64,000 nt of DNA from Candidatus Heimdallarchaeota archaeon (GCA_018238155.1 JABCTZ010000006.1:32001-96000), one strand, 5' to 3'; shown: positions 38,404 through 48,978, counted from the stretch's first letter. Made by a program: numbers and translations. The notes: generated by a model not told the origin, from the sequence alone.

Positions 38404-39894
38404 ACACCGGTTGATCCTGCCGGACCTGACTGCTATTGGAGTAGGACTAAGTCACGCTAGTCAAAGGTGCAGAATGGAGCACCTGGCGTACGGCTCAGTA
38501 ACACGTAGTCAACCTACCCTAAGGACGATGACAACCACGGGAAACTGTGGATAATCTTCGATAGGAAATTTGGCCTGGAACGGTATCTTTCCTAAATCCG
38601 CCTCGCCGTGAGATACGGGCCTTAGGATGGGGCTGCGGCCGATTATGCTAGATGGCGGTGTAAAGGACCACCATGGCGACGATCGGTATGGGCAATGGAA
38701 GTTGGAGCCCAGAGTCGCTAACTGAGACAAGGTAGCGAGCCTTACGAGGCTTAGCGGTCGCGAAAACTCGCCAATGCACGAAAGTGTGAGTGGGCTACTC
38801 CAAGTGTCATTCTTACGGATGACTGTCGCCCAGTATTACAAGCTGGGAAAGGAAGGAGAGGGCAAGGCTGGTGCCAGCCGCCGCGGTAAAACCAGCTCTT
38901 CGAGTGGTCAGGACGTATATTGGGTCTAAAGCGCTCGTAGCCGGACATGTAGGTTCTTGGTTAAATCCGACAGCATAACTGTCGACCTGCTGGGAATACC
39001 GCAAGTCTTGGGAGCGGGAGAGGATAGAGGTAGTCATAGGGCAGGGGTGAAATCCAGTGATCCTATGGCGACCACCGATGGCGAAGGCATCTATCTGGAA
39101 CGTCTCCGACGGTGTGGGGCGAAAGCTAGGGGAGCGACCCGGATTAGATACCCGGTTAGTCCTAGCCGTAAACGATGCCGACTAGGTGTTGCGACGGCCA
39201 AGAGCCGTTGCGGTGCCACAGCGAAGGCGTTAAGTCGGCCACCTGGGGAGTACGGTCGCAAGACTGAAACTTAAAGGAATTGACGGGGGCGCACCACCAG
39301 GAGTGAAGCCTGCTGTTTAATTGGATTCAACGCCGGAAAACTCACCTGGTCAGACTGCAGAATGAAGCTCAGGCTAATGACCTTAGCTAACTCGCAGAGA
39401 GGAAGTGCATGGCCGTCGACAGTTCGTGCTGTGAAGTGTCCTGTTAAGTCAGGCAACGAACGAGATCCACGTCTACAGTTGCCAGCGTGTCCCATCGGGA
39501 TGACGGGAACCCTGTAGAGACTGCCCGACGCTAAGTCGGAGGAAGGAGTGGGCAACGGCAGGTCAGTATGCTCCGATAGACCAGGGCTACACGCGGGCTG
39601 CAATGGTCGGTACAATGGGCCGCGACTCCGAAAGGAGAAGCCAATCCCGAAAGCCGGTCTCAGTCAGGATCGTGGCTTGTAACTCAGCCGCGTGAATATG
39701 GAATTCCTAGTATTCGTGTTTCATCAAGACACGGAGAATACGTCCCTGCGCCTTGTACACACCGCCCGTCGTTGCAACCAACTGTGTTATGGTTGAGGTA
39801 CTTGATTTAATGCGAGTATCAATACTGTGGCATGCTAGGAGGCAAAAGTCGTAACAAGGTAGCCGTAGGGGAACCTGCGGCTGGATCACCTCCT
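38404..39894 (+). rRNA. rrs: 16S rRNA (archaeal), unlinked from 23S
   Basis: CCGGTTGATCCTGCCGGA start, GTGCCAGCCGCCGCGGTAA, ATTAGATACCC, AAACTTAAAGGAATTGACGG, GTACACACCGCCCGTC, AAGTCGTAACAAGG, GGATCACCTCCT end. Confidence 0.99.
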
Positions 39895-39952
39895 CTGAAA
39901 TCGATTGGTCCTCAGGACCGATCTTTAGTCAATGGAGGGGAAATTAAAACCC

Positions 39953-40054
39953 CTTTCCAAGTTTGACTTAATAGTAGGCGTTTGTATAACCTCATGAAAT
40001 CTTTTAACTGCAGAAATAATGGGTAGAAAAAAAGCGAGTTGTGTTAGTTAGGTT
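39953..40054 (+). repeat. 3' arm of the 16S processing stem = repeat copy R1
   Basis: GTTTGTATAACCT-CATG-AAA-TCTTTTAAC (39980-40008) ... GCGAGTTG ... GTTAGGTT, then T-tract. Confidence 0.9.
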
Positions 40055-40231
40055 GTTTTTTTATTATTTTTTGATTATGAAATAAGTGTTTAAGCGTCAT
40101 TTTTCTTGTATAGTTTTCTTCTCTGTAGAACCTTTACTTTTTTTCTTAGAAAATTTGACTATTAGAGCAACAATAGCTATTTCTAGAATAACCGGGATTC
40201 CATACAGAACAAAATAGAAAATAAATGGGCG

Positions 40232-41818
40232 TTACTGTTGTTTTTTTCGAACTATGAATATGATGATAGGTATGGCAATAATTGGTATGATAACTAAAAA
40301 GGCGAAATAGCCATAATTACATTTGGTAGGTTCAACAAAAATCGCAATAAAAGCATCAGTATGATCATCAAAGAAATTACGATAAGCATTCTGCGTAGTA
40401 GGGAAATCACTTGAAAAAGTTTCACCCATTACATAGCAGCTCCCATCACTTGCAACTACAACACTGTTAGCGCGATCAGTAGAATCCCCTCCTAGGTAAG
40501 TACTCCAGAGAAGTGAACCTGATGGAGAGAACTTTGTAATAAAAGCATCATAAATACCTCCTATAGTACTATTAGAAACCCCCTGTACTGGGAAATCACT
40601 CGAGGAAGTCTCACCAACGACATAACAGCTGCCCTCACTGGAGACCGCAATATCGTAACCGCGATCCCCGTTATACCCTCCTAAGAACGTACTCCAGAGT
40701 AAGGATCCATCCTTTGCCAGTTTGACCACGAAAGCATCTCCATACCCGCCGTAGGTGTGATTATGAGCATTGTACATGGGAAAATCAGGTGACCCTGTGA
40801 ATCCAGTAATATAGCAGCTGTCATCCCCTGCTACAGCAATACCAAGAGATTCATCCCAATAACTCCCACCAAAGAAGGTACTCCAGAGTAAAGAACCATT
40901 GGAAGAGAATTTGGTTATAAAAGCATCCCAATCACCAGCATAAGTGTCGTTAATTGCATTTTGTGTGGGAAAATCAATAGAAGAAGTAAATCCTGTGATA
41001 TAACAGCTGTCATCACTTGCTACTGCAACACCATACCCCCATTCTCCACCATACTCCCCGCCCAAATAAGTACTCCAGAGGAGAGCGCCATCAGGGTCGA
41101 ATTTGGATACAAAGACATCATAACCGCCATTAAAAGTGCTATCGAATGCCTTTTCAGTGGGAAAGTTCGTGGAGGACGTCAATCCAGTAACGTAGCAACT
41201 ACCATCACTTGTTGTTGCAACACTACACCCCATATCCCAGTTATTTCCTCCTAGGTAGGTACTCCATAACAGCGTACCATTCGTAGCAAATTTACTAAGA
41301 AAGGCATCGGTAGCAACATCAATCCCACTTCCATAGGTAGCATTGTAAGCATTCTTTGTAGGAAAGTTTGAAGACCAGGTTGTCCCCGTGACGTAGCAGC
41401 TGCCATCACTCGCCACAGCTATATCATAACCATAATCTAAATCACTCCCACCAAGATAGGTACTCCAGCATAGAGTGCCATTTGCAACAAATTTGGACAC
41501 AAAAGCATCTCTACCACTATATGTATAATTGAATGCATGAAGCGTTGGGAAATCTCCTGAGGAGGTTCTTCCTGTGAGATAATAGCTGCCATCCCCTGCC
41601 ACAGCAATGCCTAAGCCAATTTCTGTTCCACCCATGCCACCAAAAAAAGTACAATACTCAAGAGTAGGCATAGCAGTCTTCTGGACTCCAAATTGAGTCT
41701 GAGGAAGTATTTGTCCACTGCCAAAATTCAGAGGAAAGGGGGAACAAAGTATTAGAATTACAAAAAGAACGCCACAAGTCCCTCTCTTGCTTCGATTGGA
41801 AAATATCGTTTGACCCAT
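40232..41818 (-). CDS. SBBP beta-propeller repeat surface protein
   Basis: Signal peptide, about 7 repeats of WSTYLGG..D.G..IAV.SDGSCYVTG.T.S.DFP...DAFxxKF, C-terminal TM and RKK; visibly more G+C than flanks. Confidence 0.85.
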   Translation of the reverse strand: MGQTIFSNRSKRGTCGVLFVILILCSPFPLNFGSGQILPQTQFGVQKTAMPTLEYCTFFGGMGGTEIGLGIAVAGDGSYYLTGRTSSGDFPTLHAFNYTYSGRDAFVSKFVANGTLCWSTYLGGSDLDYGYDIAVASDGSCYVTGTTWSSNFPTKNAYNATYGSGIDVATDAFLSKFATNGTLLWSTYLGGNNWDMGCSVATTSDGSCYVTGLTSSTNFPTEKAFDSTFNGGYDVFVSKFDPDGALLWSTYLGGEYGGEWGYGVAVASDDSCYITGFTSSIDFPTQNAINDTYAGDWDAFITKFSSNGSLLWSTFFGGSYWDESLGIAVAGDDSCYITGFTGSPDFPMYNAHNHTYGGYGDAFVVKLAKDGSLLWSTFLGGYNGDRGYDIAVSSEGSCYVVGETSSSDFPVQGVSNSTIGGIYDAFITKFSPSGSLLWSTYLGGDSTDRANSVVVASDGSCYVMGETFSSDFPTTQNAYRNFFDDHTDAFIAIFVEPTKCNYGYFAFLVIIPIIAIPIIIFIVRKKQQ

Positions 41819-41980
41819 GATAATAACCTATTGCCTTTCTTTTAAGTATTTTATTCTTATAAGATTTATCTTGATTGAGGTTTCCTTAAATCTTTTAGTT
41901 TTGCACTTTCTTTACAATATAACCTCAAATAAAAGAAGAAACAATGAAATAAATAATGCTGTTATTTTTAAAAAAAAGAT

Positions 41981-47491: not shown

Positions 47492-47562
47492 AATGCATCC
47501 CGCTTTTCCATTCTCTTGTATTTCTTTCCTTTTCAAATTGATAAAATTTTTTGTAATGAGCG

Positions 47563-47577
47563 TGTGCGAGTTAGATT
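47563..47577 (+). repeat. R7: terminal remnant of trailer arm
   Basis: TGTGCGAGTTAGATT; the preceding ~60 bp also resemble 48905-48965. Confidence 0.6.
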
Positions 47578-47588
47578 AGTTCATTTTT

Positions 47589-48904
47589 TTATTCTTCTTT
47601 ATATTTCAATTCAGGTTTATTTTTCAGTTTTATTTTTTTAGATTTCTTCAACTTCCTCACAGAAAAGATAGACATAATTATAACAATAATCAAAATAAAT
47701 GGACTTGCAATACCCATTATTGGAAGAATTAAATAGTGAAATATGAGTGGTAATTTTATTATTGGAAATTGTAGTTTAATTCTATTCTTATTTTCTATAT
47801 CAAAGATAAAAAGATCGGTTTGTGTGTCAGGGGCACCTGTCATGTAATCCTCTGTCATAACTAAAACATAGTTTTTGTACAAGAAAATTTTCTTAAAATC
47901 TAGTTCTACTATATCCTTTAGCCTATATTTACTTCTGCATTTAATTTCATCATTTTCTACTTCTAAAAGTACTAAATTCTTTGAGTTTATGATGCAAATA
48001 ATATCATCCTTAACAGCAATTGACTTTGGTTGAGCTATATCATAACTTGCAATTTTTTCCGGATTATAAGGATCGTCATTATTGAACACTTGAATTTGGT
48101 TACTTTTTAATGCATACAGAAAGTTATCCTGAAAACTTATTCTGGTATATTCTTCTTCAAATTCTTTTACTTTTACTGGTGCACTTACATTGCTGAAATC
48201 GTAGACCAACAATTTGTTGTCAATAGTACTATGATATAGAAAATTATTATGGAATTTATAATCTAGGATATCATCATATTTATAATACGGTGGATATTGA
48301 TTCCCAATCACAATTTCTGAAATATTGTGACAACCAATTAAGATTGGATTATAGATATCACTAATATTGTATATTTCACATTGAGGGACTTCATATCTTG
48401 AACCAAACAAAAAGAGATTGTTCTTTTTTTGCTCTAAACGGTGAACAAAGCTTAAATTTGTACCAATTATTTTATTAAAGTATTGATCTTTTCATTTTCA
48501 ATAAATCCAATTACACTTTGATTAACATTATAATTTCCATCCATTGCCATGAACGTAATACTGCCATTATTGTAAAATGAGAAAATATATTCATAATCAA
48601 AATATCTTACCCATTTTAATTCTTTCCATCTTTGTAATTGGGAGATATTTCTTACAAATATTGAACTTGATGAGAAGCTAACGAGAACTAAATCATTTAC
48701 GCATGTAATATCATTGCACATCTTTAACATATGATTAATACTCAGTGGATTATTATTGAAATAATTTAAACTTTCAGTTTTAGCATTGTTTTTCTCAGTA
48801 TTCATATTTGAGTAATGATTCCGTAAATCATTCATTTGAACTAAAATTATGATTATAAAAAAAAAGGTATAAATAATCCTCTTCCTACAATTCTTTAATC
48901 CCAT
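47589..48904 (-). pseudogene. Frameshifted LVIVD-like surface protein, paralog of 46256..47491
   Basis: ORFs 48467..48904 and 47589..48410 join if one A is added near 48470 (TLIK-IIGTNLSF...LFGSRY); LLVYDFSNVSAP and LFIFDIENK repeats, C-terminal TM. Confidence 0.7.
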
Positions 48905-48965
48905 TTTTCCACTCTCTTGTATTTATTTACTCTTCAAATTAATAAAATTTCTTGTAATAAGAATA

Positions 48966-48978
48966 TGCGAGTTAGGTT
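48966..48978 (+). repeat. R8: terminal remnant of trailer arm, end of array
   Basis: TGCGAGTTAGGTT followed by a long T-tract. Confidence 0.65.

Follow-up and report, generated by a model that had tools for sequence, protein, structure and literature searches.

Displaced copies of the 16S rRNA trailer delimit a gene cassette array in an Asgard archaeon

Layout of the array behind the 16S rRNA gene

We analysed a window of 64,000 nucleotides (nt) from Candidatus Heimdallarchaeota archaeon (GCA_018238155.1 JABCTZ010000006.1:32001-96000), in which positions are counted from the first letter. The source is a metagenome bin (91% complete, 5.9% contamination; G000 in the comparisons below) of a Heimdall-group Asgard archaeon, and the 16S rRNA gene in the window is the single copy in this 4.08-Mb genome. 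Behind it lies a row of seven short gene modules, here called cassettes, set between eight repeats. A first-pass annotation of the sequence had reported these repeats as arms of the 16S processing stem; all eight are present where it placed them, on one strand, and the identity of the repeat as the 16S rRNA trailer is borne out by the pairing described below. The anchor, the leader and the repeats are as follows.

38186..38314, plus strand: 16S leader, 5′ arm of the processing stem, with a bulge-helix-bulge (BHB) half at 38240-38269
38404..39894, plus strand: 16S rRNA gene, proximal anchor of the array
39895..40065, plus strand: R1, functional 16S trailer, with a BHB half at 39980-40009, outer arm and T-tract
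43149..43312, plus strand: R2, trailer preceded by the final 23 nt of 16S, which begin in the helix-45 loop; BHB half intact
43826..43905, plus strand: R3, eroded trailer copy
44600..44679, plus strand: R4, eroded trailer copy
45372..45460, plus strand: R5, trailer copy; its left part is carried along with cassette 4
46117..46216, plus strand: R6, trailer copy, BHB half intact
47563..47580, plus strand: R7, stub of outer arm and T-tract only
48966..48985, plus strand: R8, stub of outer arm and T-tract only

The repeat is the 16S rRNA trailer

R1 and the leader form the exact 3-4-3 BHB by which an archaeal pre-rRNA processing stem is recognised: CAUG at 38250-38253 pairs with CAUG at 39993-39996, and the bulges, of 3 nt each, lie at 38254-38256 and 39997-39999. 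The half-motif is kept in R2 and R6. Pairing of R1 through R6 with the leader exceeds that of dinucleotide shuffles (z of -5.4, -3.8, -4.0, -3.0, -2.7 and -5.0, respectively). R1 is the working 16S trailer and R2-R6 are displaced copies of it. The complementarity to the leader that had been claimed for the repeat as a whole does not extend to R7 and R8 (z of -0.1 and -1.5), which retain just the outer 13-15 nt plus the T-tract. R2 is 85% identical to R1 and starts inside the 16S sequence; overall, the repeats of the array are 75-85% alike, and the longest identical share between any two is 37 nt. Preservation of R6 is better than that of R3-R5. A possible ninth repeat between the SBBP and peptidase genes of cassette 1 (a 10-nt match near 41920) was not detected by three trailer profiles. 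The sole TATA-like match found upstream of 16S (38201-38212) sits within the stem arm, just past the stretch to which the outer motif of the repeat pairs.

The repeat is restricted mostly, not wholly, to the rRNA locus. With at most two mismatches, the outer motif occurs seven times in the array and three times in the remaining genome; next to the eight copies of the array there are three strays, on contigs C4 and C26. The features of a miniature inverted-repeat transposable element (MITE) or other dispersed repeat, namely terminal inverted repeats and genome-wide scatter, were not found, as there is no self-hairpin and there are only these three strays. At C4:44445-44721, outside the rRNA locus, a HicB-like gene is bordered on the right by a 16S trailer copy, and contig C119 of G009 (L190:7721-8060) likewise holds a HicB-like gene with a right-hand 16S trailer copy, among neighbours unlike those on C4; each is a cassette outside an array. 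At C26:44304-45862, far from 16S and near small toxin-antitoxin-like genes, a 448-amino-acid gene stands between two co-oriented 16S trailer copies of the genus type, which may reflect relocation of a block or wrong binning of the contig.

Some features of the row recall a CALIN, an array of integron cassettes that lacks an integrase, in which attC sites would by chance resemble the trailer. The cargo is of the kind usual in integrons, elements that are enriched among Asgard archaea (PMC9668308), four of the six repeats R1-R6 end in GTTRRRY, and R6 also carries RYYYAAC. The attC reading that this ending prompted was rejected by a single-strand folding test, in which none of R1-R6 folds into a hairpin on either strand (z between -1.5 and +1.6). 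Additionally, the 91%-complete genome contains no match to TIGR02249, the integron integrase, and the repeat is an rRNA stem arm that tracks the host trailer in every lineage. We consider this explanation very improbable.

The array is not an artefact of assembly

To an assembly chimera joining the 16S flanks of several strains we give next to no credence. The contamination of the bin and the tangled assembly graph around arrays behind the 23S gene (see below) would fit one. Yet a second assembly reproduces 43319-48472 with one mismatch, which confirms R3-R7 and a stop codon in the RelE gene described below; it is only partly independent, since it may come from a related sample. A mis-join is also unlikely because the 37-nt maximum share between repeats is far under the 127-nt contig overlaps, and displaced 16S ends in the same layout are present in the single-contig genomes G016 (closed), G093 and G115. 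No listed contig covers the whole array, and the metagenome contigs compared at 85% likeness represent relatives, not the same strain. Thus, two scenarios that the first-pass annotation had named as fatal to its proposal, a strain chimera and a MITE, both fail; the third, an invariant gene order in relatives, fails as well, as described below.

Cargo of the cassettes

The intervals between repeats, and the region that bounds the array distally, hold the following.

40114..40221, minus strand: relic resembling, at 78% of nucleotides, the 3′ end of a gene in a relative (L206) that is itself like module 7
40232..41818, minus strand: cassette 1, SBBP beta-propeller protein of 528 amino acids (Pfam)
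42017..42898, minus strand: cassette 1, C13/caspase-like peptidase of 293 amino acids (Pfam Peptidase_C13)
43353..43801, plus strand: cassette 2, putative antitoxin at 43353-43547 (no family match) and RelE/ParE toxin at 43544-43801
44027..44603, plus strand: cassette 3, DUF433 and DUF5615 (PIN-like) pair (Pfam)
44683..45303, minus strand: cassette 4, DUF433 and DUF5615 pair (Pfam)
45593..46049, minus strand: cassette 5, HicA and HicB (Pfam)
46256..47536, minus strand: cassette 6, 426-amino-acid protein without family match
47589..48904, minus strand: cassette 7, paralogous to cassette 6 and interrupted by a frameshift near 48470
49071..51639: distal boundary, with MFS at 49207-50508 (plus strand) and ADH at 50614-51639 (minus strand)

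Most labels assigned at first pass agree with Pfam (SBBP, Peptidase_C13, ParE/RelE, two DUF433 and DUF5615 pairs in opposite orientation, and HicA with HicB). Two were dropped: the gene called Phd has no family match, and the genes called LVIVD-like match neither Pfam nor NCBIfam and show just a sub-threshold Beta_propel hit. The protein of cassette 6, 27% identical to that of cassette 7, is probably a membrane-anchored beta-propeller. One self-contained module per interval describes the layout correctly, but two modules are broken, cassette 7 by its frameshift and cassette 2 by an in-frame stop at codon 22 of the RelE toxin. A relative carries a gene homologous to cassette 7 together with an R8-like stub. 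Four pairs paralogous to the SBBP and peptidase pair (40232-42898) occur elsewhere in G000, on C11, C17, C19 and C41, at 39-54% identity; on C41, a 149-amino-acid LAGLIDADG-like frame lies just upstream of the pair.

Arrays in relatives share, swap and vary their cargo

Rows bounded by trailer copies and filled with other cargo are present in the same genus in G004, G005, G006, G008, G010 and several metagenome contigs. The interval from 16S to ADH holds different cargo in G005, G006, G008, L206 and L207, and the arrays of the first three terminate at the same ADH gene. Two close relatives match the window from 49071 on, including the MFS gene, but have other genes ahead. The expectation that cargo downstream of 16S would differ among relatives is thus confirmed in congeners, which differ in both cargo and order. 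Homologues of cassette 3 occur in the arrays of G010 and G004, and those of cassette 5 in the arrays of G005 and G004, where HicAB is bordered by host-type repeats in each host. The predicted combination of common distal and diverged proximal cassettes is also observed: between G006 and G008 the distal block is 98% identical, whereas the proximal cassettes are 83-88% identical and two are swapped in order.

Across the class, taken from a named homologue to be Heimdallarchaeia, arrays were found in families f1, f2 and f4, and outside it in four further families of Asgard archaea, single-contig genomes included. No array was seen in the loci read from f3, f5 and f6, nor in G007 or G026. In family f2 (L041, L043, L071, L072, L076), many cassettes contain paralogous proteins of 525-583 amino acids with weak TPR matches, which recur up to five times behind 16S. 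In G016 (L034:10600-10720), an apparent intron-containing tRNA gene, read by eye, closes the 16S array just after a LAGLIDADG gene.

These comparisons bear on whether the row could have arisen by local tandem duplication and deletion, with no gene flow between lineages. Duplication would account for the paralogous cassettes 6 and 7, which have 104 nt in common at 80% around R7/R8, for the frequently paralogous genes (~530 amino acids) of the f2 cassettes, and for young displaced copies that are up to 97% identical to the host trailer. It does not account for the five of seven cassettes that are unrelated to their neighbours, for homologous cassettes in other species and in other orders, or for HicB, which is 92% identical to that of G005 against 77% for ADH. 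Local duplication alone is improbable.

Crossovers inside repeats and erosion of displaced copies

A metagenome locus from another study, L209, contains cassette 4 at 97.3% identity with different neighbours; the next module is another toxin-antitoxin pair. In L209, R4 keeps its diagnostic right end and R5 its left end; the remaining halves of both repeats are R1-like. Crossovers thus occur inside the repeat, since cassette 4 is joined to new neighbours via chimeric repeats, and each repeat is therefore a hybrid of a left part from the preceding cassette and a right part from the following one. Further joints that skip or reorder cassettes are found in four metagenome runs.

The displaced 16S copies begin at -147, ~-43, -38, -36, -30 and -28 (three times) relative to the 16S end, with many shorter ones down to -2. 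In two studies, cassette 3 is followed by 22 nt and then by a trailer copy starting at 16S -28; in the same place, the window's R4 starts ~85 nt inside the trailer. The variable truncation of left ends described at first pass is real, but this relative shows it to be largely a product of later erosion. Similarly, the proposal that pieces are added at the 16S-proximal end agrees with the shared distal and diverged proximal cassettes, yet growth is not solely proximal, given the better preservation of R6 relative to R3-R5 and the exchange between inner repeats that the chimeric repeats record. An origin of the cassettes as 5′-truncated retro-copies was dropped: they lie in both orientations with their upstream regions, and the truncation of R4 is secondary in light of the relative.

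An array behind the 23S gene of the same genome

Behind its 23S gene, G000 also has ~36 displaced pieces made up of the 23S 3′ end plus trailer; within any one contig they share an orientation. They were counted on eight contigs; the contigs named for them are C35, C28, C31, C33, C9, C5, C2, C32 and C10 (L125-L135, L137). Overlaps between these contigs allow one array of >100 kb or mixed strains, and some of the copies may come from mixed strains. Many start ~20-25 nt ahead of the inferred 23S end, and 14 of the 36 start within 6 nt of one another. Their cargo includes restriction-modification, Thoeris-like, argonaute-like, HEPN and toxin-antitoxin genes. The first cassette (L125:2666-4054, L133:4560-5717) codes for a LAGLIDADG-like domain in degenerate form and, after it, a possible PD-(D/E)XK motif; a HerA-like ATPase lies beside it. 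Two versions of this first-slot protein are 33% identical; it has no homologue in 82 genomes of the class and no informative atlas match. In L125 (C35 reverse, first 500 nt), AT-rich insertions lie in the sarcin-ricin loop region of 23S and near helix 98.

Free-standing LAGLIDADG genes and rRNA introns in relatives

Archaeal rRNA genes can carry BHB introns with LAGLIDADG homing endonucleases, and free-standing nucleases can home together with an intron. A free-standing LAGLIDADG gene stands behind the 16S trailer in seven related loci (G040, G016, G093, L168, L171, L175 and L181). In six of these it directly follows the trailer and encodes a ~204-amino-acid product with both catalytic motifs intact. 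In the closed genome G093, the 16S gene has a ~165-nt intron at -28/-29 and is followed by its trailer and by a LAGLIDADG gene that contains one stop; next come a 16S end that starts at -30 and lacks the intron, and a second trailer, different from the first. This order corresponds to the full layout proposed for a WHO element, the yeast homing element discussed below. In G115, too, an intron-less displaced end lies behind an intron-bearing 16S.

Small intron-like insertions in the last 45 nt of 16S, at ~-42, -28, -23, -13 and -9, occur in many Asgard genomes (L033, L041, L044, L046, L070, L072, L036, L198, L202), inside or beside helix 45 and the anti-Shine-Dalgarno sequence. A link between the left ends of displaced copies and these intron sites was not beyond chance by a rough count (~19 of 27, with about half expected). 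Between G016, which has the nuclease gene, and G026, in which none was found, 16 of the 16S differences fall in the last 187 positions and 11 in the other 1284. From sequence comparison, this 3′-end divergence is a hint of 3′-end replacement. No allele difference between the two was seen at the 908 site or in helix 45.

Could every displaced copy mark a nuclease-driven homing event, with cargo hitch-hiking and the nucleases since lost from this genome? The geometry of G093, the six further loci with a nuclease behind the trailer, the introns near the 16S end in relatives and the degenerate LAGLIDADG-like domain in the first cassette behind the genome's own 23S all speak for such a graveyard of homing elements. 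Against it, no nuclease relic is present in any of the seven cassettes, the inner repeats recombine with one another, and the protein of the 23S slot has no counterpart elsewhere in the class; moreover, with five intron sites in 45 nt, the match of left ends does not go beyond chance, as noted above. We regard this history as quite unlikely.

Search for a site-specific integrase

As first described, the array has no integrase next to it. None was found in any cassette scanned or recognised, serine recombinases not being part of the search. Two tyrosine recombinases are encoded in G000, unlinked to the array. G016 (closed, 3.08 Mb) and G012 contain displaced copies but gave no PF00589 match, not even XerA, which may be a miss of the first-look filter.

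A tyrosine recombinase acting in trans could still have integrated DNA at helix 45, a dyad at the DNA level, as in islands at tRNA gene ends, with later loss of the integrase and erosion. Several young copies do start between -30 and -21, around the helix-45 loop, the 14 clustered starts among the 23S copies have the appearance of a fixed site, the two unlinked recombinases are candidates, and crossovers inside the repeat are compatible as well. Starts at -147, ~-43, -38 and -36, on the other hand, are incompatible with one crossover site, and the 16S and 23S sites have no common sequence, the latter being without a strong dyad. The scattered left ends and the lack of a tyrosine-recombinase match in G016 and G012 make a fixed site-specific crossover unlikely as the only route, and the same evidence, together with the absence of integrases from the cassettes, leaves integration at helix 45 an unlikely explanation with a small but real chance of being correct.

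Discussion

The array is real and is best read as a form of accretion by 3′-end replacement. We favour, as rather probable, a model in which copies of the 16S end and trailer recombine homologously out of register, relatives being the source of donor DNA, and so maintain an array that was seeded by breaks near the 16S end. A cassette would be cargo flanked on one side by the right part of a trailer copy and on the other by the left part of the copy that follows. DNA donated by a relative would recombine on its left with 16S or any trailer copy and on its right at the displaced copy that the donor carries. Entire modules would thereby be inserted, swapped or deleted, and a single intact 16S with a functional BHB trailer would remain; displaced copies would afterwards erode by deletion. 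The first of them probably go back to double-strand breaks within the last 15-45 nt of 16S, for which LAGLIDADG homing endonucleases that target rRNA and bring a replacement 16S end are a plausible source. Left ends scattered from -147 to -2, instead of falling at one base, support this model. What the sequences show directly is what the repeat is, how the row is laid out, that cargo is both shared and variable, that repeats are chimeric and eroded, and that relatives have the nuclease gene behind trailers. Host enzymes probably carry out the recombination; the direction and rate of exchange, like the role and cut site of the nuclease, are inferred, and new genes may still be entering the row. 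The toxin-antitoxin pairs may stabilise it, an idea borrowed from integron biology (PMC9668308), and one pair is broken here.

Several observations weigh against this model. Repeats that are 75-85% alike, with no more than 37 identical nt, are short for efficient homologous recombination, and the initial entry of a wholly new gene is left unexplained. Neither an excised circle nor a same-strain deletion of a single cassette was observed. As regards the nuclease, no LAGLIDADG gene is present in the window's array or behind the trailer of any congener read, and the nearest other relatives of the f2 nuclease are intron-encoded at 16S position ~865 (E. coli ~908) in other archaea, not at the 3′ end. 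Its f2 hosts have an ordinary intron-less helix 45, so that their immunity is unexplained. The heterogeneity between G016 and G026 is that of one pair of 15, lies in a variable helix, and is weak or absent in most other pairs. Because the array lacks the gene and the immunity of f2 hosts is unexplained, the nuclease may be the seed, an occasional driver or a passenger in the recombination model.

Genomic islands are known to accrete in tandem behind tRNA and tmRNA genes, at their 3′ ends, and 3′-end-replacement homing has, to our knowledge, so far been shown only at a yeast protein gene. The first-pass annotation knew of no comparable system; for the geometry, both are precedents. In the WHO homing elements at FBA1 of Torulaspora and Lachancea yeasts, the 3′ end of the host gene is replaced and the old end is pushed outward, where it then acts as a second recombination site (Coughlan et al. 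2020, PMC7282813). As there, the 3′ end of an essential gene would be replaced, and displaced host-gene fragments, which lie interleaved with the inserts, would act as sites of recombination; the arrays are polymorphic, with decay toward the distal end, and a LAGLIDADG-type nuclease gene lies behind the host gene, here only in relatives. Unlike WHO clusters, the archaeal array contains no homing endonuclease gene, its host is an rRNA gene with a processing stem, and its cassettes bear toxin-antitoxin, surface and defence genes instead of nucleases.

In tRNA- and tmRNA-end islands, for which the term additive flexible genomic islands is in use (PMC5217437), displaced 3′ fragments of a conserved RNA gene likewise delimit acquired blocks, and content varies at a fixed locus. 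The array has such a fragment at the far end of its inserts (R2 and the copies in relatives), but the target is 16S rRNA, no integrase was found in or near the cassettes, and left ends do not share a single crossover position; erosion cannot explain the longer ones. Moreover, the duplicated piece of the 16S locus includes a BHB arm and a terminator-like T-tract, and cassettes comprise one or two genes. Sedentary chromosomal integrons and CALINs, archaeal ones included (Ghaly et al. 2022, PMC9668308), resemble the array in their row of short cassettes between co-oriented repeats, toxin-antitoxin-rich cargo and hybrid repeats after exchange. They differ in that the array has neither attC hairpin nor IntI nor attI, its repeat is rRNA-derived, and its cassettes, judging from the layout, probably carry their own promoters in either orientation. 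Archaeal rRNA introns have in common with it the nuclease family, found in 16S introns of other archaea, and the small introns in helix 45 of relatives; here, the nuclease is encoded beyond the rRNA gene and its trailer, and the process produces a duplicated gene end and gathers unrelated cargo. Thus, the geometry of the array is like that of a WHO cluster and its output like that of an integron, yet it belongs to neither, nor to the tRNA-end islands. Our literature search, which covered papers outside subscription, found no description of this array type, and the passages searched in the paper on two closed Heimdallarchaeum genomes (PMC8813620) do not mention it.

These results point to a concrete path by which accessory genes can move within the archaeal lineage that is nearest to eukaryotes, and the loci concerned are usually broken in short-read bins. 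They extend 3′-end-replacement homing to rRNA genes and to the transport of cargo. The nuclease family offers a direct biochemical test, and the arrays, above all the much larger 23S ones, provide a ready list of candidate defence genes. The model predicts mosaic 16S 3′ ends, which would be relevant to marker-gene trees, and the insertions in the last 45 nt of 16S would defeat common 3′ primers. More broadly, and tentatively, since we put the chance somewhat below even, the 3′ ends of the unlinked Asgard rRNA genes may form a widespread platform for the capture of genes without an integrase. Free-standing homing endonucleases replacing rRNA ends (a prokaryotic WHO type) would have seeded it, and host recombination would now use it to trade defence and surface cassettes, which would also exchange the 16S 3′ end between lineages.

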